Source of the DNA: Polyangiaceae bacterium
GTDB taxonomy: Bacteria > Myxococcota_A > Polyangia > Polyangiales > Polyangiaceae
DNA: 64,000 bases
Reading direction: 5' to 3'
Assembly: GCA_033763455.1 (NCBI GenBank)
Contig: JANRKO010000023.1
Span: 320,001-384,000 of the forward strand
Below the pieces are notes generated by a model. That model did not search any database, was not told the DNA's origin, and saw only the letters and a program-made list of their open reading frames with translations. Shown piece by piece: positions 16,126 through 29,316 of the stretch (positions are counted from its first letter, which is position 1; each line of letters begins with the position of its first letter). A program made the translations under genes and the position numbers.

Positions 16126-16968
16126 TCAAGGATTGAGCGTTTTGGCGACTTGTCCGATCACGACATCGGCCCAAGCGTCCACTTCGCTGTCAAGAATGAA
16201 CTCAGCGTTGACCTCCTTCGCGGCCTTCCGAGCAATCTCGTGGGCATCATCCTTGTTGCTCGCGGCCGAGACCACCATCGCGAGGAGCAAGTTCGGCAGC
16301 TTCTTCCGAACGTCCTGCATTGCGAAAGCGGATGCGTCCACGTGTTCGAGAACGCGCCACGGGTCCGAAACAGCAAAGTTGAAGCACTGGGCCGCGCAAC
16401 GCGCGACGCCGTTCGAGACCACCACATCAAACAGCCTGGCGCGCATATCGGCGGAAACCGGAGAACGGGTGCTAACGATCACGTGCTGAGATTTGTCGAT
16501 TTTCTCTGCAACGGCGCCCTTCAAAGCGTCCTTCAAGCTCCCAACCAGCCTTCGCTTGTCAGTCGCATGAGGTGCGCTACGCGCAGGCTTTTCCGGTTCG
16601 TCCGGTTCGACCAAGAATGTCGGGGCGACGTCATCGAGCAACGCGTCCGGCTCAAGCAGCGACGCACGCGGCGCGGTCAACTGAATGCTGCCCTGCCAAT
16701 CCACGGCGAGCCGTTTGACTGTCTCCTCATCGATGCGCTTCGTGCGGCGGTCGCTGGGCCCTTCGGGAACCATCGACTGCTGCACCCACTCCTGGAACGC
16801 TCTCGCACTGACCAGGCGTTCGGACTGCGCGAACAGTTCGACGCGACTCCAATCTTCGAGAAACCTGCCGCGGACCGCCCCATCGCCAAACGTGAGCACG
16901 CCGACGTTCACGAACTCCTCGGCAAGCGAGCTCGGAACGAAGCGGACCACTGAGTAGTACGATGTCAT
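16126..16968 (-). CDS. DUF3037 domain protein
   Basis: N-terminal YYSVVRFVPSSLAEEFVNVGVL; ATGA overlap with the upstream kinase. Confidence 0.8.
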   Translation of the reverse strand: MTSYYSVVRFVPSSLAEEFVNVGVLTFGDGAVRGRFLEDWSRVELFAQSERLVSARAFQEWVQQSMVPEGPSDRRTKRIDEETVKRLAVDWQGSIQLTAPRASLLEPDALLDDVAPTFLVEPDEPEKPARSAPHATDKRRLVGSLKDALKGAVAEKIDKSQHVIVSTRSPVSADMRARLFDVVVSNGVARCAAQCFNFAVSDPWRVLEHVDASAFAMQDVRKKLPNLLLAMVVSAASNKDDAHEIARKAAKEVNAEFILDSEVDAWADVVIGQVAKTLNP

Positions 16969-17807
16969 GGAGTTACCTCGCCGCTTCCAGCGGTCGCATT
17001 CTCAGCCCCGGAGGCGAACGCACGCAAGAGGTCGTCGCGTCGACGCCACATATAGGTGGCGAAAGCGATCTTTTCCTCCGCAGAAACGCCCCACACGGCG
17101 GGCGCGGCGGCAATGTCCTCCGCCAGATTCGCCGCGCTAACATCCCCAAGCCGGGCAACCGCTCGAGTGAGTTCCTGTTTGGTCAGCGCCGCGCCGCTCT
17201 CGAGAACACTATCGACGTGGGCGGGGCCTCGCGCTTCAAGGATCGCGATCGTCCAATTCGGTTCGCTCGGCCCAACGAAGTGACCGTGGTCGACCGACCA
17301 AACGTAGGGCGGTGGCTCATTCGGGTAAATTTGCTGATGGTCGCTGGCGTGCGCCCAACCGTAGAGGACGGCAAGGCTCGCGAACCGCGACCGATTCTCG
17401 GTGAGATCGGTGTGGGCCACGCCCAGACGATCCGAGTGTCTATCGAGAAATTCTAGCCCGTGGCAAACGCCCGCCGTCATGTGGGTGAGACGTGCTTCGG
17501 CTTTGACGAGCACGTCTGGGAGCGACACCAGAGCAGGCTTAGGCACTGGGGCACCAATGCGTTGCGCGAGACGAGCGATCACCTGATCGTTGAAGAGCAT
17601 CCTCCCACCCGCCTGCTGACCCTTAAGCACCCGGAATACACCGTCGCTACACTTGAGGCAAACCGGCGCGGAAGCAGAGCCCCACGGGCCAAAATGAAAC
17701 GTGACGGCTTCAAGAATCGGCGGCAGCTGCCCCGCGGCGGCAATGAGGAGCTGAGCCCAATCGGGTCCTCGCGTCGTGACCTGGCTCTTTTCTTCGACCT
17801 CTTCCAT
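16965..17807 (-). CDS. HipA-like (HipA_2-type) kinase
   Basis: GSASAP...VLKG...LFNDQVIARLA...GAPVP; D-H loop (ASDHQ) and DHG motif; paired with DUF3037. Confidence 0.75.
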   Translation of the reverse strand: MEEVEEKSQVTTRGPDWAQLLIAAAGQLPPILEAVTFHFGPWGSASAPVCLKCSDGVFRVLKGQQAGGRMLFNDQVIARLAQRIGAPVPKPALVSLPDVLVKAEARLTHMTAGVCHGLEFLDRHSDRLGVAHTDLTENRSRFASLAVLYGWAHASDHQQIYPNEPPPYVWSVDHGHFVGPSEPNWTIAILEARGPAHVDSVLESGAALTKQELTRAVARLGDVSAANLAEDIAAAPAVWGVSAEEKIAFATYMWRRRDDLLRAFASGAENATAGSGEVTP

Positions 17808-17990
17808 CCTGGTCCTTCTTCTACTGAACCTGGTCGCAACAAGCGCGCGCCGGCCGGCACAACCAGAAAAAATCCTGGGAGAACCTTATGCGAAGCCGAT
17901 CCTATTTGGGCCCTGTCCCAGAGGTCAAGTGAAAGACTCGATGATCTCCACCAGCTCCGGTCCAACTGCCTCGAGTTTGCCTTGCCTCCA

Positions 17991-18026
17991 TTTCGTTTGT
18001 TTCGATTATTGCATTTGTTTCGTTTC
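17991..18026 (+). promoter_or_regulatory. Four 9-bp direct repeats; putative operator for the Xis-like HTH protein
   Basis: tttcgtttg / tttcgatta / ttgcatttg / tttcgtttc, ending 20 bp upstream of ATG 18047. Confidence 0.55.
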
Positions 18027-18046
18027 GCGCTAGCCTGGTCTTTGCC

Positions 18047-18502
18047 ATGCAAACTTCCCCCGTGAAATTGCCTACTTCCAAAGCGTCAGAGGAAGCCAAG
18101 GTGGCGCTTCGCGCACTCTCTTCGCTGCCGCGTCGGAAGGCCTCGCGGACAGTTGAGGTTCGGCCAGAGGGGGAAGGAAAACCAGTGGCGGTGAGTGTGC
18201 CACGTGAGGCATTCGAGCTGTTCCTCGAGATCCTTGGTCAGATGGCGAACGGCAACGCGGTTACAATCGTGCCTGTTCATGCGGAACTAACAACCCAGCA
18301 AGCCGCAGATCTGCTCAACGTGTCCCGGCCATTCCTGGTTCGGTTGCTCGACGAAAAGAAGTTCCCGTTTCGCTTGGTCGGGACCCATCGCCGCGTGCTC
18401 GTCGCGGATCTGCTGGCATTCAAGCAAAAGGAGGATGCGCGCCGGCAGTCCGTCCTCGATGAGCTTACGGCGGAGGCAGAGAAACACGGTCTGGGGTACT
18501 AA
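18047..18502 (+). CDS. Excisionase-like HTH_17 DNA-binding protein (putative antitoxin)
   Basis: [23 protein letters not shown]...[20 protein letters not shown] terminus. Confidence 0.9.
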
Positions 18503-18507
18503 CCCGC

Positions 18508-19083
18508 ATGGCGTTCGTCGTCCTCTACGACGCTTGCGTGCTGTACCCGGCGCCACTGCGCGATCTTCTCATTCGCCTGGCCAACACGGGGATCGTTCGA
18601 GCACGTTGGTCGGAGACGATTCTCGATGAGTGTTTCCGCAATATCCTTAACAATCGCCCCGAGCTTCGTCCCGAGGCCCTCCATCGAACACGAGAACTGA
18701 TGCGCCAAGCGGTGCCGGACTGCATGGTTTGTGGATTCGAGGCCCTCATCGAGGGTATCGAGCTACCGGACCCCAACGATCGGCACGTTCTGGCAGCCGC
18801 TATCCGCGCAGGAGCACAAGCCATCGTGACCTTTAATTTGGCGGACTTTCCGGAGCAAAAGCTCGCATCGTACAACATCGAAGCCAAACACCCGGACGAT
18901 TTTGTGCTCGACACGATCGATCTCGCGCCCGGGCTCGCTACGGCCGTTGTTAGCCGACAGGCAAACGCGCTCAAGAGTCCGCCTCGTTCAGTGGGGGAAT
19001 TGCTCGATACTCTGCGGGATCAGGGGCTGGTGCGCTCGGTCGCCAAGCTACGCGAACTGCTCGGCGCTGGTGACGCAATTTGA
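18508..19083 (+). CDS. PIN domain protein (PIN_3-type putative toxin)
   Basis: VLYDACVLYP, WSETILDE, LPDPNDRHVLAAA, IVTFNLADF, HPDDF. Confidence 0.9.
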   Translation: MAFVVLYDACVLYPAPLRDLLIRLANTGIVRARWSETILDECFRNILNNRPELRPEALHRTRELMRQAVPDCMVCGFEALIEGIELPDPNDRHVLAAAIRAGAQAIVTFNLADFPEQKLASYNIEAKHPDDFVLDTIDLAPGLATAVVSRQANALKSPPRSVGELLDTLRDQGLVRSVAKLRELLGAGDAI

Positions 19084-19176
19084 CCGCTGGCATCGATGAC
19101 TCTTCAGGACCTCGTGATGATCGCGAAGGAGGTACAACCAATGACCGCCCGTTCCATCGTTCCACTGAACGAAACC

Positions 19177-19582
19177 TCAGCGAGCCGCGTGCAGTTCCAG
19201 ACCCAGCACACGCGAAAACCGTTCAAAATCTTGATCCGTAGTAAAAACTGCGAGCTTCCTCCGCAGGCTCACGGCACATATCAGAAAGTCCGTGTTCGAC
19301 CCCTGAACCCCCTTGGCCCGACACCGATTGAAGCAAGCTGCGGCTTCCTCGTAGTCAGCCGCTTCGAGCGGGATATCTTCGAATGCACGTAAGCGTTCAC
19401 GTAGCTTCCGATATTGTTCACCAACTCGAACTCCCGACAGCAATTCTTGTCGAATAGCGCCAATCATTGCCACGCGCCCCTCACGTATCAAATTCGACTA
19501 GCTCCTTAGCGGCTGCGCTATCAGGTGCACCCCTTCTACGTATCGCTTGCGACCACACGCAGGTGTCTACCAGGACGTTCAT
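19177..19582 (-). pseudogene. vapC: VapC PIN toxin with a single-base frameshift
   Basis: ATG 19582 gives MNVLVDTCVWSQAIRRR...KELVEFDT* (stop 19481-19483); the adjacent frame continues LIREGRVAMIGAIRQELLSG...TDFLIC...TTDQDF; one extra T near 19490-19492. Confidence 0.8.
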
Positions 19583-19779
19583 CGACGTTGCCGCTGGACC
19601 TTGTAGTCATACTTGGGCTCAACGTCGATCTTCCCGAACAGTTCCACAACGCGCTGCTGCTTGCGGCGCTGAATGTACTCATTCAGTGCTTCGGTAACAG
19701 TTGCGCGTTTCGTCTTCTGGCCGCCGATCCTGAGGGCCTCCTCGAGCAGGGCATCGTCAATCGCAAGGTTCGTCGCCAT
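19579..19779 (-). CDS. vapB: VapB antitoxin (RHH-type)
   Basis: MATNLAIDDALLEEA...TKRATVTEALNEYIQRRKQ...YDYK; ATGA overlap with vapC. Confidence 0.9.
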   Translation of the reverse strand: MATNLAIDDALLEEALRIGGQKTKRATVTEALNEYIQRRKQQRVVELFGKIDVEPKYDYKVQRQRR

Positions 19780-19791
19780 GTATGAATTCTT

Positions 19792-19807
19792 ACACAACTC
19801 AGTGTGT
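19792..19807. promoter_or_regulatory. Inverted repeat ACACA-N6-TGTGT; putative vapBC operator
   Basis: Palindrome 12 bp upstream of the vapB ATG. Confidence 0.5.
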
Positions 19808-20104
19808 GACGCTAACTCCCAAGCGCACCCCCGGCCACCCCAAGCACCCGGGAAAGTCCAAATTCGCAGCCATTCTCGCACTTCCGTACAAACTCTCGAA
19901 TGGCCCCAATCTGGAACCCGAAAGCACGATCCTACCCTGGACGCAATCAGCCGCTTTGCCATCCTGGGGGCAGATGATGCGGCTTTCGTTTTCTCCCCGG
20001 GACGCGCGATTTTCACCAGTATACAGCCTGCACGTGGCGCCGGAATGCTCACCGCTGTCGCAGGTTCGCTGCTTTCAACCGCTTGCTTCGGATAGGCTCG
20101 CCTC

Positions 20105-21142
20105 GTGACCTGGGAAGAACGTTGGCATCCGTTGCGCAAAGAGTGGGTGGTGGTAGCGGCTCATCGCCAAGATCGACCCTGGATTGGGGAAGAGGTCGCG
20201 CGCAAAGAAGCGAAGGTGCCTGAATACCTCCCGGACTGTTACCTCTGCCCGGGCAATACTCGCGTGAGCGGCGCCAAGAACCTCCCGTATGAGGGGGTGT
20301 TCGTCTTTGATAATGATCACCCCTGCGTAGGGCCAAAAGCTCCAAGTGTTGCACCAGGCGGCGGCGTGTTCCAGGCGCGTTCGGCGCAAGGTCAAGCGCG
20401 CGTGGTGTGTTACACACCGCGCCACGACTTAACGCTCGCAGAGCTTGAACAGCCGCAAATCTTGGCGCTTCTGAAGACCTGGCAAACCGAATATCGAGCT
20501 CTCGGAGCGCTCCCCGAGATAAAGCACGTATTGTGCTTTGAGAACAAGGGAGATGTGGTGGGCGTCTCCAATCCGCACCCCCACGGGCAGATCTACGCAA
20601 CTAACTTCATCTTTAAGACAACTGAGATCGAGTGTGAAGCGAGCGCCGAACATCTCAAATCAACGGGCCGTTCGTTATTCTCAGATATCATTCGTGCCGA
20701 AAAGGAAGACGGCCGGCGTGTGCTCGATGAGAACGAGAGCGCCATCAGCTTTGTGCCCTATTTTGCCCGCTACGCGTACGAAGTGTACGTAGCGCCTAAG
20801 GCCACGCACCCAAGCATTGCGGAGCTTTCGGCGGCGGAGCTGGAAGATTTCGCGAAAATTCTGAAGCTCGCCTTGGTGCGCCTCGATAACCTATGGCGTA
20901 TGCCTCTCCCCTACGTCATGGTGCTTCACCAAGCACCGACAGACGGGCAGAGCTACCCGGGCTATCACTTTCACATTGAATTTCACCCACCGTTGCGGAA
21001 GCCCAACTTGCTCAAATACCTCGCGGGGCCGGAGATTGGCGCCGGCAATTTTGTGAGTGATACTTCGCCGGAGCAAAAAGCGGAGGAGTTACGAAGCCTC
21101 CCCACGCAACACTACAAGCTTCAAGCCGGCGGACTAAAATAG
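20105..21142 (+). CDS. galT: Sugar-1-phosphate uridylyltransferase (GalT family)
   Basis: [23 protein letters not shown] active-site motif. Confidence 0.9.
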
Positions 21143-22158
21143 TGCACATTTCTGAATTTCTACCAGTACTTAGCGAATTACACGCGGCGATCCGCTCTGC
21201 CGTCGTGAAGGCGTGCGAATCCCAAAGCATCGAAGCCGTTTCGGCCATTGCGGATGATTCCGACGTCGCCGATACGATCTTCGCCATCGATAAGGTGAGC
21301 GAAGAGCTTCTTCACGCCATGTTGGAGCCGCACGCGAAGCGGCTGGGAGGCATCCTGCTCATCGCTGAGGGGTTGCCAGAGGCAGGCCTCCGGCTCCCAC
21401 ACGATCAACCGGAAGAAAGCTTGAAGTGGCGGGTCATCGTCGATCCGATCGATGGCACCCGCGGGCTCATGTATCAGAAGCGCAGTGCTTGGGTGCTTAC
21501 AGGCGTCGCCCCCAACCGCGGCAAGGCCACCACACTGCTCGATATTGAGCTGGCGGTGCAAACAGAAATCCCGCTCGTTAAGCAGCACTTGTGCGATGTC
21601 TTTTCTGCCATCCGAGGTCAAGGTGTTACGGCCACTCGCTTGAATCGACTGACGGGTGTTTCGGTACCGCTTTTTGTGCGTCCCTCCAAAGCGCACACGA
21701 TCGAACAGGGCTACAGCGCGCTCACGCGCCTTTTTCCGGGTGCACGCGATGTTCTGGCCGCCATCGATGAGGACTTGGTGGCTCGCGTCTTAGGCCCGGC
21801 GAAAGCTAGCCGAGCTCAGTGCTTCGAAGATCAATATGCGAGCACCGCAGGGCAGTTACACGAGCTCTTGGTTGGCCATGATCGTTTTTTGGCTGATCTA
21901 CGGCCCCTTATGGATTCTGTCCTGGCGAGCCGCGGTCTGCCGAGTGCTATGTATTGCCACCCGTATGATATTTGCACTTCGCTCATCGCGGAGGAAGGCG
22001 ACGTTGTGGTGCGCGCGGCGGATGGTTCACAGCTGGATGTGCCTTTAGATGTGACAACTCCCGTAGCGTGGGCTGGCTATGCTAACGCTACTATCCAAGC
22101 TCAAGTCGAACCGGCTCTTCTGCAGATCTTGCGGGAGCGCCAACTCATAGGAGTGTGA
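21142..22158 (+). CDS. Inositol monophosphatase-family (FIG superfamily) phosphatase
   Basis: AEG, VDPIDGT, HPYD; overlaps the galT stop (TAGTG). Confidence 0.8.
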   Translation: MHISEFLPVLSELHAAIRSAVVKACESQSIEAVSAIADDSDVADTIFAIDKVSEELLHAMLEPHAKRLGGILLIAEGLPEAGLRLPHDQPEESLKWRVIVDPIDGTRGLMYQKRSAWVLTGVAPNRGKATTLLDIELAVQTEIPLVKQHLCDVFSAIRGQGVTATRLNRLTGVSVPLFVRPSKAHTIEQGYSALTRLFPGARDVLAAIDEDLVARVLGPAKASRAQCFEDQYASTAGQLHELLVGHDRFLADLRPLMDSVLASRGLPSAMYCHPYDICTSLIAEEGDVVVRAADGSQLDVPLDVTTPVAWAGYANATIQAQVEPALLQILRERQLIGV

Positions 22159-22164
22159 ATAGCT

Positions 22165-23607
22165 GTGCTCAGTTTTCCTGACGTAGATGCCTGGCCTGGA
22201 GCCCGCGAGTTTCTGGCCGCGCTACACGGGCTCCGCAAACATGAGCAGCTCTGCACCCGATCGCTATTTTTGGATGCGTCCCCCATCACGATTGCGCGAG
22301 CCCCTGGCCGCCTCGATCTTATGGGTGGCATCGCAGATTATTCTGGCTCTTTGGTATTGGAAATGCCCATTCGCGAGGCAGCGTTTGTCGCCGCGAGCCT
22401 TAACGCCACGGGCACGGTGAAAGTCACCACTCAAGATGCAGCAACGGGAGAGCGACGGGACTTCGATTTTCCTATCCAAGATCTCATGAGTGGAGCCTTC
22501 TCCAGCTATGAGCGCGCCCACGGATATTTTGCCGCAGACCGAGCGCATTCATGGGCGGGTTATGTGGTGGGGGTTTTGGTGGCGCTTTTTCAAGATACAG
22601 GCCTTAAGGTTCCCGAAGGCCTCTCAGTCTTCGTGTTTTCCCAAGTTCCGGAGGGCAAAGGCGTGAGCTCCTCTGCCGCCCTGGAAGTAGCCACGCTCAA
22701 TGCCGTTCTAGGCGCTCTGCAGCAAACGCTCCCCAAAGATCGCATTGCGCTGCTCTGTCAAAAAGCAGAGAACCTGGTAGTGGGTGCACCGTGCGGTGTG
22801 ATGGATCAGATGACATCCGCGTTGGGTGAAGAGGGGCAATTGTTGGAGCTGCTCTGCCAGCCCGCCGAAGTGCTCGGAAGCGTGAAGCTGCCCGAAGATC
22901 TGCAAGTGTGGGGTATCGATTCCGGCGTGCGTCATGCCGTTTCTGGGGCGGATTACACGGACGTGCGAGTGGCCGCCTTTATGGGCCAACGGATCCTTTC
23001 GGTGCACGCACAACGCGCTTCTGAAGCTGCGGGGGCTCGGCAGTTTACGGGGCACCCCTACCTGGCGAACCTAACGCCCAGCGAGCTGGTAGCCACTCAC
23101 ACGCGGCATTTGCCCACCACCCTTCGCGGTGCTGACTTCCTGCGTGAATTTGGCCACACGAACGACACCGTGACGCGTGTGGATCCCGAGGTGTCATATC
23201 CGGTAGCTGCAGCCACGGCTCATCCCATTTTCGAACACTTCCGCGTTCGGTGCTTCCGCTCATTGCTCAAGACGGGCACTTTGGACGCGAATGGGGCAGC
23301 TACGCTCGGCGAACTCATGTACCAGTCACACGCCAGCTACGGTGCTTGTGGCCTAGGTTGCCAGCCGACAGATTTATTGGTGGAGCTGGTACGGCGCGAA
23401 GGAATAGATGCGGGTTTGTTGGGTGGAAAGATCACAGGCGGTGGCAGCGGCGGCACGGTGGCTGTGCTCGGGCGCCGTGGCAGTGATGCAGCCATTCAGC
23501 GCATCTTAGAGGCTTATCAAGAGCAAACCGGGATTGCGAGTTATCTGTTCCAGGGCTCTTCGCCGGGCGCGGCAGCGTTTGGTACACGAGTACTGAGCGG
23601 GCACTAG
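22165..23607 (+). CDS. GHMP sugar-1-kinase, galactokinase/L-arabinokinase-like
   Basis: RAPGRLDLMGGIADYSGS, VPEGKGVSSSAA, GAPCGVMDQM, KITGGGSGGTV. Confidence 0.88.
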   Translation: MLSFPDVDAWPGAREFLAALHGLRKHEQLCTRSLFLDASPITIARAPGRLDLMGGIADYSGSLVLEMPIREAAFVAASLNATGTVKVTTQDAATGERRDFDFPIQDLMSGAFSSYERAHGYFAADRAHSWAGYVVGVLVALFQDTGLKVPEGLSVFVFSQVPEGKGVSSSAALEVATLNAVLGALQQTLPKDRIALLCQKAENLVVGAPCGVMDQMTSALGEEGQLLELLCQPAEVLGSVKLPEDLQVWGIDSGVRHAVSGADYTDVRVAAFMGQRILSVHAQRASEAAGARQFTGHPYLANLTPSELVATHTRHLPTTLRGADFLREFGHTNDTVTRVDPEVSYPVAAATAHPIFEHFRVRCFRSLLKTGTLDANGAATLGELMYQSHASYGACGLGCQPTDLLVELVRREGIDAGLLGGKITGGGSGGTVAVLGRRGSDAAIQRILEAYQEQTGIASYLFQGSSPGAAAFGTRVLSGH

Positions 23608-23698: not shown

Positions 23699-24796
23699 TC
23701 AATCCAGCTCACCAGGCGGTAGCCCAGTTGGAACGGCACTCGGCCTTTCCACACGTGTTTTGAGCTCAACCACGCGCTTCTCAGCTCCAGAGACGTGCGC
23801 GCTCTCCATGATGTCCAATAGGTGGTAAGCAAGCTCCCCACTCGCACGGTGCGCGCGGCCGGATTTTAAAGCCTGCACTAGATCCGCGGCGCCTGCTCCA
23901 CGCATTCCTTCCGCGTGTGTCAACGGTACTTCCTCCCAGTCGGAAGAACCCCGCTTGGCGATCCGAACTGGGCCACCAAAGGTGTTGGGGTCTGGTACAG
24001 ATAGCGCACCCTCCGTGCCGTAGATCTCGATGCGAGGCAGCGAATGTCGCACCACATCGAAGCTCATCATCATGCTCGCCGCAGCGCCGTTTTCGAACTC
24101 AAGGTTGGCAGCTACGTGGGTTGGAACTTCTACCTTCACACGAGTGCCATAAAGTGGCTTGCTCGTGATGGTGCGCTCCGCGAACGCTTGGTTCGTAACG
24201 GCACTCACGCGCCTAACGGGGCCCAGGAGGTTCACGAGAGCTCCCAGATAATACGGGCCCATATCTAAGAGGGGGCCACCGCCCGCCTGGTAGTAGAACG
24301 CCGGGCTTGGGTGCCAGGATTCATGGCCAGCGCAGCCAAAAAAAGCCACTGCCGAAGTTGGCTGGCCGATGGCGCCGTCGTCGATCAGCTTGCGGCAAGT
24401 CTGGATGCCCCCGCCCAAGAATGTGTCCGCGGCGCAAGCCACGCGTAACTTCTTAGCGCGCGCCAACTCCAGCACCGGGGCAGCCTCGCTCAACCTCAAG
24501 GCTAGTGGCTTTTCGCTGTACACGTGCTTGTTCGCCTCCAGAATAGCCATATCCACCGGGGCATGGGCCGCGGGAATCGTCAGGTTGATGATCAATCCAA
24601 TCTCAGGATCCTTCAGCAAGTCCGCGATGCTGACGGCGCGGATGCCATGTTCTTGGGCCTTCTGCTTGGCCCGCTCTTCGTCAAGATCCGCACAGGCAAC
24701 GATAGAAAGAGCGCTGTAGTGCTTTCCGCCCTTGAAGTACGCGTTCGAGATGTTGCCGCAACCGATCACGCCTACGGCCATTTTCGTGTTTGTCAT
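23699..24796 (-). CDS. Gfo/Idh/MocA family oxidoreductase
   Basis: GCGNIS, HVYSEKP, DMGPYY, YGTEG. Confidence 0.92.
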   Translation of the reverse strand: MTNTKMAVGVIGCGNISNAYFKGGKHYSALSIVACADLDEERAKQKAQEHGIRAVSIADLLKDPEIGLIINLTIPAAHAPVDMAILEANKHVYSEKPLALRLSEAAPVLELARAKKLRVACAADTFLGGGIQTCRKLIDDGAIGQPTSAVAFFGCAGHESWHPSPAFYYQAGGGPLLDMGPYYLGALVNLLGPVRRVSAVTNQAFAERTITSKPLYGTRVKVEVPTHVAANLEFENGAAASMMMSFDVVRHSLPRIEIYGTEGALSVPDPNTFGGPVRIAKRGSSDWEEVPLTHAEGMRGAGAADLVQALKSGRAHRASGELAYHLLDIMESAHVSGAEKRVVELKTRVERPSAVPTGLPPGELD

Positions 24797-24831
24797 AGCT
24801 TTTCCTTCAACGCACCAGCTCTGAGGAGAGC

Positions 24832-25491
24832 TCAAGCAAGTGCTCCTGCCGCCCATAGCAGCCCGCGACGCGTGAGCTCGAGTGCCTCAGGCACATCAAA
24901 GTCCGCACGCACATGGCCCAAAGCGGAGTAGAAAACCCGACCTTTGCCGAAGCGCTTCTTCCACACCACTGGCATCGTTACATTCTTGATCCAATCCGCA
25001 TCGCCATGCTCACCACTAAAAACGGTGGTAGCGAGCACTTCGTTGGCTGGGTCAACGTGCATATAATATTGCTCGCTGTGCATCTGAAAATCAGAGATGC
25101 CGCGGGTAATTGGGTCATCCTCACCGATGATTTGCACGCTATAATCAACGATGTTGCCAGGATGCGCGACCCACTGCCCCCCCGTCATGAACTGGTAGTC
25201 CACGTTGTTGCGGAACGCATCGCACATGCCCCCGTGCCAGCCCGCAATCCCCACTCCACCGCGCACGGCGTTTAAGAGGCCGCGTTCGCTCTCCCCCGGA
25301 AGAGTTCCCATGGTCCAAACCGGGACAACTAAGCTCAAGCTTTTCATCAGAGCTTCGTCCTGGAACACCTCAAGGTTGCTCTCGATACGCACCTCAAACC
25401 CTGAGTTGCCCAAAATCTCCCCAAACAAGCGAGCGCAAATCTCCGGCTCATGCCCATTCCATCCGCCGTACACGAACAGTGCTTTTTTCAT
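24832..25491 (-). CDS. ThuA domain protein
   Basis: [34 protein letters not shown]. Confidence 0.88.
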
Positions 25492-25566
25492 AATTGCTCC
25501 GCCTTGCGCGTTTTGACCACCATATATGCTGCATTATCGCCAATCTAGAGGATATATTTCCCACAC

Positions 25567-26397
25567 ATGGATCTTTTTACCATCCCCTTCCGGCACCACC
25601 CACGCCGCCTGCCAGCGCGTTTGCCCCTCGCCCAGCTAGGCTACCTGCCGAAAAAGTTCGACCAGGTTAACCGCGGCTTTGATACTGTTAATTACTCGTT
25701 CATACTGCGTGGCACGGGGCACTATGAGTTGTACGGCGTGCGCCACCTAGTGCAGGCACCCTGTGTGTTCATCGAATTCCCTGGCCTGGAGTTCAACTAT
25801 GGCCCACTCGCCAATACATCTTGGGAAGAGTTGTACCTGATGTACGACGGTGCGCAGCAGCCGGTCCTCGAACAAGCGGGCCTCTTCGACGCAAGCGAGC
25901 CCATCTGGAGCTTGGGGGAGACGCGTCGGCTCGCGGCGCTTTCGCTCGAATTGCGCACACTTTGCACCGCAAGCCTCACCCACAATATGGATCGAATCGA
26001 TCGCGTGGCCGAAGCACTCTTAGTGGAGGCTCACCTTGCTGAGGGCCACGCCGAATCGTCCGCGCCCGCTGCGCGCGTGCGGGAGGTCCTCCAGCTGATC
26101 GAACAGCGCTACCTGGAAGATCACGATTTTCTGGAGCTGGCACGCAGTCACCAGCTCTCACCAACGCATTTTCGTCGCCTTTGGAACCACCTGGTTGGAG
26201 TGCCTCCCGCCCGCTACGTGAGCGAGCTTCGTCTGAAGCAGGCATGCCGGATGCTTGTGGAATCGACGGCCCCCGTCGCCAAGATCGCCAGAGAGATGCG
26301 CTTTCCGGATGCGTTGTATTTCTCCCGCAAGTTTCGGAACTTCACGGGCCAAAATCCAACCAGCTACCGGCGGCGCTATTCGGGAGGCGGAGGCTAA
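25567..26397 (+). CDS. AraC family transcriptional regulator
   Basis: N-terminal cupin-like sensor; LSPTHFRRL...LRLKQA...YFSRKFRNFTGQNPTSYR. Confidence 0.93.
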   Translation: MDLFTIPFRHHPRRLPARLPLAQLGYLPKKFDQVNRGFDTVNYSFILRGTGHYELYGVRHLVQAPCVFIEFPGLEFNYGPLANTSWEELYLMYDGAQQPVLEQAGLFDASEPIWSLGETRRLAALSLELRTLCTASLTHNMDRIDRVAEALLVEAHLAEGHAESSAPAARVREVLQLIEQRYLEDHDFLELARSHQLSPTHFRRLWNHLVGVPPARYVSELRLKQACRMLVESTAPVAKIAREMRFPDALYFSRKFRNFTGQNPTSYRRRYSGGGG

Positions 26398-27999: not shown

Positions 28000-29316
28000 A
28001 TGGGCAACCGAGCCAAACGTGCGCGGCGCTGCGAAAAGTGCCGGCTCCATCTTTCGGCGTGTCTGTGCGCTGAAATACCTAACTTCGATCTAAACACCAA
28101 GCTGGTGCTCGTGATGCACCAACGCGAAGTGCACAAGACGACCGCTACGGCACCCTGGGCACTGCTGGCGCTCAAGCAGAGCGAACTGCACGTGCACGGG
28201 GAACGCGAAAGCACGCTCAACCTCAGTTCCTTACAGACCCCGGAACGCCGGATCCTACTGCTTTTCCCCTCCGAACAGGCCCGCCCGCTCACACCACAAG
28301 TGCTTTCGGAGGATGCGCGACCGGTCACACTAATAGTGCCTGATGGCACCTGGCGTCAGGCCAAGCGAGCTGCAAAGCGCATCCGAAACCTGATCCAGGC
28401 TGAGCCCGTATGCCTTAGCGGGGGCCCAGCGAGCGAATATAAGCTCCGGCGCGAACCACAGGTTGAAGGCCTCGCGACCTTCGAAGCGATTGCGCGCGCC
28501 ATGGGTATCATCGAGGGCCGAGGAGTGCAAGTGGCGCTTGAAGCTGCGTTTGCGCGCTTAGTCCACGCAACGCTCGCATCACGCGGGGTTGTGGCTCCCC
28601 TCGCAAAAAACAACGCCTCCACGATCGCAGCAGACGTTACGGCGCCGCCTCAGGTTTCACTTGAGATCTTGTATCAAGACGATGATCTGATTGCCATCAA
28701 CAAGCCTTCCGGGATGCCCGTGCACCGAGGCTGGGCCAAAGACGGCCTGCCCGCACTTCAAGCCTTAAGAAACCAGATCGGCCGCCACGTTTACCCCGTG
28801 CACCGCTTAGACCGCGCAACCAGCGGAGTGCTGTTGTTTGCCTTGAGTAGCGAAGCGGCGCGGGATATTCAGCGAATTTTTGACGAACGCAGGGCAAAAA
28901 AGACGTACCTAGCGCTCTGCCGTGGCCATTCTGCATCGCTCACGCACGTGGACCATCCACTTGCGAAGGTCAAAGGCGGCACCGCTCGCCCCGCCGTCAC
29001 AGATTTCAGGCTACTTGGGCAGTTCGAACGTTATGGCCTGTATGCAGCTCAGCCGCATACAGGGCGGTTGCACCAGATCCGGCGGCACCTAAAGCACAAA
29101 AGCCACCCGATTATCGGGGACGTGCGCTACGGCAAAGGGGAGCACAACCGCATCTTTCGCGAACGGTTTGGATTTCACCGGCTCGCACTCCACGCAGCAC
29201 TTCTTGAGCTGGAACACCCTCGCACCCAAGAGGCTCTGGTGCTGAGGGCGCCCTTACCCGAAGATCTCAAACTGCTCTTTGCACAGCTAAATCTACCCAT
29301 GGAGGCTGGGATTTAA
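28000..29316 (+). CDS. Fusion protein: DTW-domain tRNA acp3U transferase (TapT-like) + TruC/RluA-family pseudouridine synthase
   Basis: N-half RCEKC..CLC, MHQRE, DGTW, LATFEA; C-half ILYQD..INKPSG, HRLD, TGRLHQIRRH, HPIIGD, RLALHA; single open frame. Confidence 0.88.
   Translation: MGNRAKRARRCEKCRLHLSACLCAEIPNFDLNTKLVLVMHQREVHKTTATAPWALLALKQSELHVHGERESTLNLSSLQTPERRILLLFPSEQARPLTPQVLSEDARPVTLIVPDGTWRQAKRAAKRIRNLIQAEPVCLSGGPASEYKLRREPQVEGLATFEAIARAMGIIEGRGVQVALEAAFARLVHATLASRGVVAPLAKNNASTIAADVTAPPQVSLEILYQDDDLIAINKPSGMPVHRGWAKDGLPALQALRNQIGRHVYPVHRLDRATSGVLLFALSSEAARDIQRIFDERRAKKTYLALCRGHSASLTHVDHPLAKVKGGTARPAVTDFRLLGQFERYGLYAAQPHTGRLHQIRRHLKHKSHPIIGDVRYGKGEHNRIFRERFGFHRLALHAALLELEHPRTQEALVLRAPLPEDLKLLFAQLNLPMEAGI

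Follow-up and report, generated by a model that had tools for sequence, protein, structure and literature searches.

What is the role of a bacterial operon in which a sugar kinase of a plant type is encoded together with a uridylyltransferase and a phosphatase? The question is raised by three genes at positions 20,105 to 23,607 of a 64,000-nucleotide stretch from the genome of a Polyangiaceae bacterium (assembly GCA_033763455.1, contig JANRKO010000023.1, positions 320,001 to 384,000), the whole of which is hereafter called the window. An earlier note on this DNA had read the genes as a possible salvage route in which L-arabinose or a related sugar is converted to a sugar-1-phosphate and then to a nucleotide sugar. 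The comparisons described here place the kinase in the family of the kinase domain of plant L-arabinokinase (ARA1) and not with galactokinase (GalK), and the three genes were found together, in the same order, in bacteria of several phyla. Read from the genes alone, the triad would best be explained as the center of a catabolic route of the Leloir type that leads from L-arabinose to D-xylose, a reading that we favor to a modest degree.

The three genes are encoded on the forward strand, each with a GTG start codon. The first (20105-21142, 345 amino acids) encodes a class I UDP-sugar:sugar-1-phosphate uridylyltransferase of the GalT type, a HIT-family enzyme in a subfamily tied to the ARA1-like kinase. 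The second (21142-22158, 338 amino acids) encodes a phosphatase with the fold of fructose-1,6-bisphosphatase (FBPase) and IMPase, which belongs to a distinct subfamily and is proposed to be a sugar-1-phosphate (xylose-1-phosphate) phosphatase. The third (22165-23607, 480 amino acids) encodes a stand-alone GHMP sugar-1-kinase of the ARA1 type. The tight coupling of the genes described in the earlier note was evident in the DNA at both junctions. At the GalT/phosphatase junction (AAATAGTGC) one base is common to the stop codon TAG and the start codon GTG (TAGTG), and at the phosphatase/kinase junction (GTGTGA-ATAGCT-GTG) the gap is 6 bp. A simple promoter and terminator scan around the triad gave no signal above that of shuffled sequences.

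The kinase and its two partners

The resemblance of the kinase to ARA1 had originally been proposed on the basis of six motifs and the lack of the GalK signature. All six motifs were located, at residues 48-65, 162-171, 207-216, 250-257, 353-361 and 381-398, and the GalK signature GRVNLIGEHTDY was absent with GRLDLMGGIADY occupying its position. The replacement includes the Glu-His of the GEH in that signature, residues we take to hold the C6 hydroxyl in GalK, which are Gly-Ile in the window kinase. The protein scored below the cut-offs of all five GalK equivalog models, with 137.9 versus 226.65 bits for TIGR00131, 161.1 versus 499 for PRK05101, 146.7 versus 443 for PRK03817, 113.2 versus 385 for PRK05322 and 97.8 versus 509 for PRK00555. 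The Pfam domains PF00288 and PF08544 were matched, and PF10509 weakly. The phosphate-binding motifs PEGKGVSSSA and TGGGSGG are intact, and all 30 aligned rows have the same residues at R49, D58, Y59, D214 and G425-G430. The predicted structure (pLDDT 89.3) has the GalK fold, with galactokinases matching at Z 39-40. A solved structure named AbGHMP (9ulx/9uly) matches the window kinase at E 4.7e-142; no published account of it was found in a literature search from which subscription journals were outside the scope. The title of the entry indicates no function, and its deposition shows that the family has already been studied.

Among the longer-protein matches listed, plant L-arabinokinases of 843-1099 amino acids are 41-47% identical to the window kinase over 79-99% of the query. 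A phylogeny was computed with IQ-TREE from 42 rows that included ARA1, GalK and every third of the 76 kinases from the surveyed loci, with GalAK and GlcAK left out. One clade, with support of 100/100, united the window kinase with 28 bacterial relatives and the C-terminal domains of 10 plant ARA1 proteins. A branch of 7.35 lies between this clade and the two GalK sequences, that of E. coli and that of the genome itself. The plant domains were monophyletic (100/99), their place among the bacterial lineages not being resolved by the tree. The identity and the common clade confirm the proposed resemblance, and the results indicate that the window kinase belongs to the ARA1 kinase-domain family rather than to GalK. 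It consists of the kinase domains only and is without the N-terminal glycosyltransferase-like half of the plant protein of approximately 1000 amino acids. The family is large, with at least 8000 matches, for which the JGI names are 'L-arabinokinase' or 'galactokinase'. Phosphorylation of L-arabinose at C1 is the activity predicted for the ARA1-type kinase from homology.

The transferase scored above the cut-off of the GalT equivalog model TIGR00209 (277.3 versus 102.1 bits) and below that of the narrower PRK11720 (311.7 versus 448). Domains PF01087 and PF02744 were matched, and the E. coli GalT structure 1hxq was matched at E 8.3e-67. E. coli GalT was aligned with 39 subfamily rows, comprising the window and 38 further loci. 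The positions aligned to C52, C55, H115, H164, H166 and Q168 of the E. coli enzyme are kept in all 39 rows; we take these to be the four zinc ligands, the HPH nucleophile motif and the Gln that follows it. The flank of the active site differs as had been noticed, a different 11-residue stretch from residue 150 corresponding to AAMGCSNPHPH of the annotated record of strain K-12. Residues 311-323 of the E. coli enzyme, presumably in contact with the hexose, correspond to a loop that is rebuilt in the subfamily. Y316 is replaced by Pro, V314 by Ala, L319 by Gly, E321 by Gly and Q323 by Leu, Ile or Val, each in 39 of 39 rows, and T322 is replaced by Asn in 38 and H298 by Glu in 30. An invariant loop rebuilt in this manner suggests a different or wider sugar specificity.

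The phosphatase matched PF00459 with 22.5 bits, under the cut-off of 27, and only over residues 19-123; no solved structure was found to be related to it by sequence. An AlphaFold model, computed with 33 homologues (pLDDT 86.0, pTM 0.88), was compared to solved structures with Foldseek and retrieved class I FBPases, the top match being 7c9q_D (E 2.4e-13, TM 0.65, 15% identity). Identity to these enzymes was 13-16% over about 340 columns. Residues E76, D101-P102-I103-D104-G105-T106 and D276 are invariant in the 33 aligned homologues and correspond to what we take to be the metal-binding motif of the Li+-sensitive phosphatase superfamily, a Glu, DPxDGT and a late Asp. The protein is thus apparently an active member of a separate subfamily with the FBPase/IMPase fold, as judged from the alignment and the model. 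The subfamily is also large (at least 8000 matches at E ≤ 1e-5), and its annotation is generic only. The possibility that the protein is the FBPase of this genome was considered and rejected on the basis of the low identity and the co-occurrence with the kinase described below. A second and more distant subfamily, 42-47% identical to the window phosphatase, was observed in G056, G061, G071, G090, G094, G098, G102, G106, G110, G137, G143, G155 and other genomes. Members of this subfamily are often encoded on another contig or far from the kinase gene, and adjoin it in G158 and G152.

Conservation and genomic company of the triad

Relatives of the kinase are encoded in 576 of 600 candidate stretches from species-representative genomes, the best 80 loci of which were surveyed with tblastn (E ≤ 1e-15, query coverage of at least 30%, per-family identity floors of 25-40%). 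In 51 of the 80 loci the genes for GalT, phosphatase and kinase were contiguous, in this order, and in 4 both partners were present in another arrangement. GalT was more distant from the kinase in 2 loci and the phosphatase was the sole partner in 4; loci without one or both partners are weighed below. The phyla named in the record titles were Acidobacteriota, Chloroflexota, Gemmatimonadota, Myxococcota, Planctomycetota, Latescibacterota and KSB1, and Dictyobacter aurantiacus S27 and Ktedonospora formicarum SOSP1-1 are carriers that can be cultured. The triad was also present in three of three genomes of the same genus (G001-G003; loci L108 at G001:C1:3000-22999, L109 and L110). Since the same order recurs across several phyla and in all three same-genus genomes, the arrangement is more than chance, and the synteny survey proposed in the earlier note has shown the triad to be conserved. 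Neither a grouping of the kinase with GalK nor a lack of conservation was found.

Three proteins from metagenomes are fusions of the parts. P0142 (850 amino acids) joins GalT to the kinase, whereas P0143 and P0151 (847 and 844 amino acids) join the phosphatase to the kinase. Some of the fused proteins could be gene-calling artefacts or read-throughs. Within the lineage of the window the module is patchy, as full-length, high-scoring matches to the kinase among 40 relatives were limited to the three same-genus genomes and a genome of one other genus (G014). The same parts are packaged differently in three loci of Planctomycetota (L038, L077 and L095), in which the kinase gene is without GalT or phosphatase nearby and is directly followed by a gene for a GalE-type epimerase.

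Enzymes of arabinose release and of xylose use are among the neighbors that recur in the 80 loci. GalE was encoded in 31 loci (TIGR01179, 435.6 versus a cut-off of 262.3), GH51 alpha-L-arabinofuranosidase in 20, class I XylA in 18 (TIGR02631, 526.8 versus 447), the sugar-binding protein of an ABC importer in 16, the xylulokinase XylB in 9 (TIGR01312, 569.6 versus 380.25), GH127 beta-L-arabinofuranosidase in 8 and a GalM-type mutarotase in 6. E. coli AraA, AraB and AraD had no tblastn match in any of the 80 loci. Cluster 12 of the neighbor survey was dropped, being an antisense open reading frame (ORF) over GalT. The presence of arabinofuranosidases, a sugar importer, GalE, XylA and XylB beside the module points to catabolism of L-arabinose by way of D-xylose over salvage, and it is from these neighbors in other bacteria that the catabolic direction is favored.

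Co-occurrence was determined in 121 genomes from the class to which the carrier G041 belongs. The kinase was found in 41 genomes, the phosphatase in 46, class I XylA in 46 and class II XylA in 11. All 41 genomes with the kinase also encode the phosphatase, compared with 5 of the 80 genomes without the kinase, and xylose isomerase was found in 39 of the 41 kinase holders versus 18 of the 80 others. The AraA_N domain was absent from all 121 genomes, from three of three further carriers and from the genome of the window.

The genome of the window, with a completeness of 93.67%, encodes a canonical GalK elsewhere (TIGR00131, 381.7 bits), and GalK also scored above the cut-off in five of five other carriers tested, namely G001, G003, G041, G042 and G043. 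Since the canonical enzyme is co-resident in all of these genomes, the sequences indicate that the ARA1-type kinase does not stand in for GalK. The genome also encodes a third GalK-like GHMP kinase (G000:C92:5168-6283), which scored below the TIGR00131 cut-off with 143.1 bits, carries GNHTDH at the position of the GalK signature and falls on a very long branch of the kinase tree (length about 10). No second GalT was found in the genome beside that of the window, nor in G001, G003 and G041; further GalT matches are present in the carriers G042 and G043. The reported absence of galE and galM from the window was borne out. Matches to E. coli GalE (tblastn) were found on contigs C63, C47, C78, C76 and C39 and none on the window contig C23, and GalM had no match in the genome at E ≤ 1e-8 with two queries. 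The GalE gene at C63:23290-24270, unlinked to the triad, lies beside genes for an FGGY kinase and an ABC ATPase. A class II XylA is encoded at C6:626818-628116 (684.4 bits), and GH43 is present. E. coli AraA, AraB and AraD had no tblastn match in the genome at E ≤ 1e-5, in agreement with the proposal that the route would differ from AraBAD.

A candidate route from L-arabinose to D-xylose and its alternatives

A Leloir cycle that operates on a pentose is the simplest scheme in which every conserved part is used. L-arabinose would be converted to L-arabinose-1-phosphate (L-Ara-1-P), UDP-L-arabinose (UDP-L-Ara), UDP-xylose (UDP-Xyl), xylose-1-phosphate (Xyl-1-P) and finally free xylose. The ARA1-type kinase would phosphorylate L-arabinopyranose at C1, and the specialized GalT would move UMP from UDP-Xyl, or from UDP-glucose for priming, to L-Ara-1-P with the formation of UDP-L-Ara and Xyl-1-P or glucose-1-phosphate. 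The UDP-L-Ara would then be converted to UDP-Xyl by a GalE-type 4-epimerase, unlinked here and adjoining in many relatives. A published account (PMC5897480) states that ARA1 produces L-arabinopyranose-1-phosphate (L-Arap-1-P) and that the GalE-type enzymes UGE1 and UGE3 interconvert UDP-Xyl and UDP-L-arabinopyranose (UDP-L-Arap). Xyl-1-P would be hydrolyzed to free D-xylose by the phosphatase, needed because a pentopyranose-1-phosphate is without a C6 to which a mutase could move the phosphate, and D-xylose would enter the ordinary XylA/XylB route. The net reaction would be L-arabinose + ATP → D-xylose + ADP + Pi, the UDP-sugar having a catalytic role.

The path from sugar to sugar-1-phosphate to nucleotide sugar put forward in the earlier note remains the natural reading, since the kinase is coupled to a specialized GalT; the salvage direction assigned to it is less favored, as the company of the triad elsewhere is catabolic. 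The assignment of the IMPase-family enzyme as a sugar-1-phosphatase is likewise consistent with the FBPase/IMPase fold and the intact metal-site motif, but the substrate would most sensibly be Xyl-1-P, with which the UDP-sugar cycle ends, because an enzyme acting on the product of the kinase itself would complete a futile cycle. Hydrolysis of Xyl-1-P would allow the phosphatase to be encoded in the kinase operon without such a cycle, although the enzyme would have to distinguish Xyl-1-P from its C4 epimer L-Ara-1-P.

Several observations weigh against a catabolic route to D-xylose. The triad is solitary in the window, where neither GalE, a xyl gene, a glycosidase nor a sugar transporter adjoins it. 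GH51 and GH127 were not found in the genome, GalM was likewise unmatched, and the two XylB-like FGGY kinases present (225 and 205 bits) are both under the XylB cut-off of 380. The GalT, as the sole one in the genome, is probably shared by two kinases, serving the canonical GalK as well, and hence would not be dedicated to arabinose. In the survey of 80 loci, GalT is beside the kinase with no phosphatase in the available stretch in 8, and neither partner is nearby in 11, 3 of which have less than 2 kb of upstream flank. The 121 genomes of the co-occurrence sample are kin and not independent, such that Fisher values overstate the associations even though their direction is clear regardless, and the association with XylA may reflect merely a common plant-polymer lifestyle. 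Furthermore, AraA is absent throughout the sampled class, from genomes with and without the kinase alike. Finally, the triad in the three same-genus genomes is flanked on both sides by a polysaccharide-synthesis block, an anabolic setting, that encodes two GT2 glycosyltransferases, a Polysacc_synt (Wzx-type) flippase, a GNAT protein, three hexapeptide transferases, TauD and an AMP-binding enzyme.

The glycosyltransferase, flippase and acyltransferase genes around the triad of these relatives, which are of the window's own lineage, would suit an anabolic salvage in which free L-arabinose is converted to UDP-L-Ara, and by GalE to UDP-Xyl, for a surface or secreted polysaccharide, the phosphatase serving as a safety valve for excess sugar-1-phosphate. 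The lack of an adjoining catabolic gene in the window is also consistent with salvage, the process in which plant ARA1 acts according to the account cited above (PMC5897480). We nevertheless consider it unlikely. The flanking proteins of the three relatives are 82-96% identical to each other, and these close kin amount to one observation; none of the genes of their polysaccharide block was found in the genome of the window, nor does any of the 18 flanking ORFs of the window lie beside the triad in G001-G003. The recurrent neighbors in the 80 loci are catabolic. Moreover, the transferase would spend one UDP-sugar for each UDP-sugar made and thus give no net gain, in which it differs from the plant pyrophosphorylase, and a phosphatase acting on the kinase product would be futile and yet accompanies the kinase in every one of the 41 genomes that hold it.

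Little credence is given to a Leloir variant that would act on D-galactose or on some other sugar of galacto configuration (D-fucose or a modified hexose, for example), with a divergent galactokinase and a phosphatase that detoxifies galactose-1-phosphate. The score of the only GalT in the genome above the galT equivalog cut-off, the GalK fold of the kinase (Z about 40) with its weak match to PF10509, and the many automatic annotations that name the family 'galactokinase' would agree with such a pathway, but a canonical GalK is present in this genome and in all five other carriers, and the window kinase fails the five GalK equivalog models, groups with ARA1 at 100/100 and has Gly-Ile for the Glu-His of GEH. 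The recurrent neighbors, furthermore, are arabinofuranosidases and xylose genes and not galactosidases. It is very improbable that the phosphatase has a housekeeping role as an FBPase or IMPase, or acts on another phosphate ester, and is merely co-transcribed, with only the kinase and GalT belonging together. FBPases are indeed its best structural matches, the 8 loci with GalT and kinase are without it in the available stretch, and the distant 42-47% identical subfamily is often unlinked to the kinase. On the other hand, the identity to FBPases of only 13-16% and the score below the IMPase Pfam cut-off, the position between GalT and kinase in 51 loci, the fusion to the kinase in P0143 and P0151, and the presence in all 41 kinase holders versus 5 of the 80 others argue against an incidental partner.

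Few plant-derived pentoses are as abundant in soil as L-arabinose, and the textbook bacterial routes for its use are AraBAD and oxidative pathways. The chances appear evenly balanced that the catabolic route to D-xylose represents a widespread, so far undescribed L-arabinose catabolism via UDP-sugars that replaces AraBAD in soil phyla without AraA (such as Acidobacteriota, Chloroflexota and Gemmatimonadota). In the literature search described above, no account was found of either a bacterial kinase of the ARA1 type or a pathway of this kind. If true, the route would explain the use of arabinose by soil phyla without AraA, which are large, abundant and poorly represented in culture, would provide a function for two very large unannotated protein families (the kinase and the phosphatase) and would add a dedicated pentose-1-phosphate phosphatase to enzymology. 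It would also provide a compact enzyme set for L-Ara-1-P, UDP-L-Ara and UDP-Xyl, with which xylose-using strains could be made to grow on arabinose, an application in biotechnology.

Flanking genes and comparison with known systems

A run of toxin-antitoxin-like genes (16126-20139) lies directly upstream of GalT. It is composed of genes for a DUF3037 protein and a HipA_2-like kinase on the minus strand (16126-17807), HTH_17 and PIN_3 proteins on the plus strand (18047-19083) and a minus-strand ORF with a VapB domain (19579-20139) that, as listed, overlaps the start of GalT by 35 bases. The VapB domain spans only residues 121-163 of that ORF, and the real gene is therefore probably much shorter. 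Downstream of the triad (23699-26397), genes for a GFO/IDH/MocA oxidoreductase and a ThuA-family protein on the minus strand converge on the kinase gene and are followed by a divergent gene for an AraC-family regulator. The block may be a separate sugar-oxidation unit and is not kept beside the triad in other genomes. Further downstream, a single ORF of 438 amino acids (28000-29316) contains a DTW domain (residues 9-190) and an RluA-type pseudouridine synthase domain (residues 229-366), a product that would combine two different RNA-modification activities.

Among known systems, the Leloir pathway (E. coli galETKM) resembles the module in that the product of a GHMP anomeric kinase is passed to a class I GalT with an intact HPH motif and zinc site, and in that GalE adjoins in 31 of the 80 loci. 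It differs in that the kinase of the module is of the ARA1 type, the loop of GalT is rebuilt, and a phosphatase with the FBPase/IMPase fold, without counterpart in the Leloir pathway, is inserted. The company of the module is that of arabinofuranosidases and xylose genes, and in the genome of the window the kinase and transferase are coupled whereas GalE is unlinked (C63) and GalM was not found. There is precedent for the reuse of the kinase, transferase and epimerase logic with another sugar in the bifidobacterial pathway for galacto-N-biose and lacto-N-biose (GNB/LNB; NahK, GalT2 and GalE2). Precedent for hydrolysis of a sugar-1-phosphate by an enzyme of the IMPase fold is provided by plants, in which the HIT-family GDP-L-galactose phosphorylase VTC2 is followed by VTC4, an IMPase-family L-galactose-1-phosphate phosphatase. 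To our knowledge, neither the GNB/LNB pathway nor the VTC2/VTC4 pair unites all four activities to turn one free pentose into another, and the sugars and subfamilies differ. With AraBAD (L-arabinose isomerase, ribulokinase and L-ribulose-5-phosphate 4-epimerase) the module shares the presumed task of delivering L-arabinose as xylulose-5-phosphate to the pentose phosphate pathway; it has no enzyme family in common with AraBAD, and the 4-epimerization would take place on a UDP-sugar and not on ribulose-5-phosphate.

The salvage of L-arabinose in plants, by ARA1 (EC 2.7.1.46), UDP-sugar pyrophosphorylase and the epimerases UGE1, UGE3 and MUR4, involves the same kinase-domain family, and the intermediates proposed here, L-Arap-1-P, UDP-L-Arap and UDP-Xyl, are the same as those named in PMC5897480. 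The bacterial kinase is without the N-terminal half, with PF13528 present in many of the plant matches and absent from the window kinase; GalT replaces the pyrophosphorylase, a phosphatase is added and the direction in bacteria is probably catabolic. Overall, the module combines the logic of the Leloir pathway with the kinase of plant salvage and yet is neither system, because its kinase fails membership in GalK and is without the plant N-terminal half, and its phosphatase is without a counterpart.

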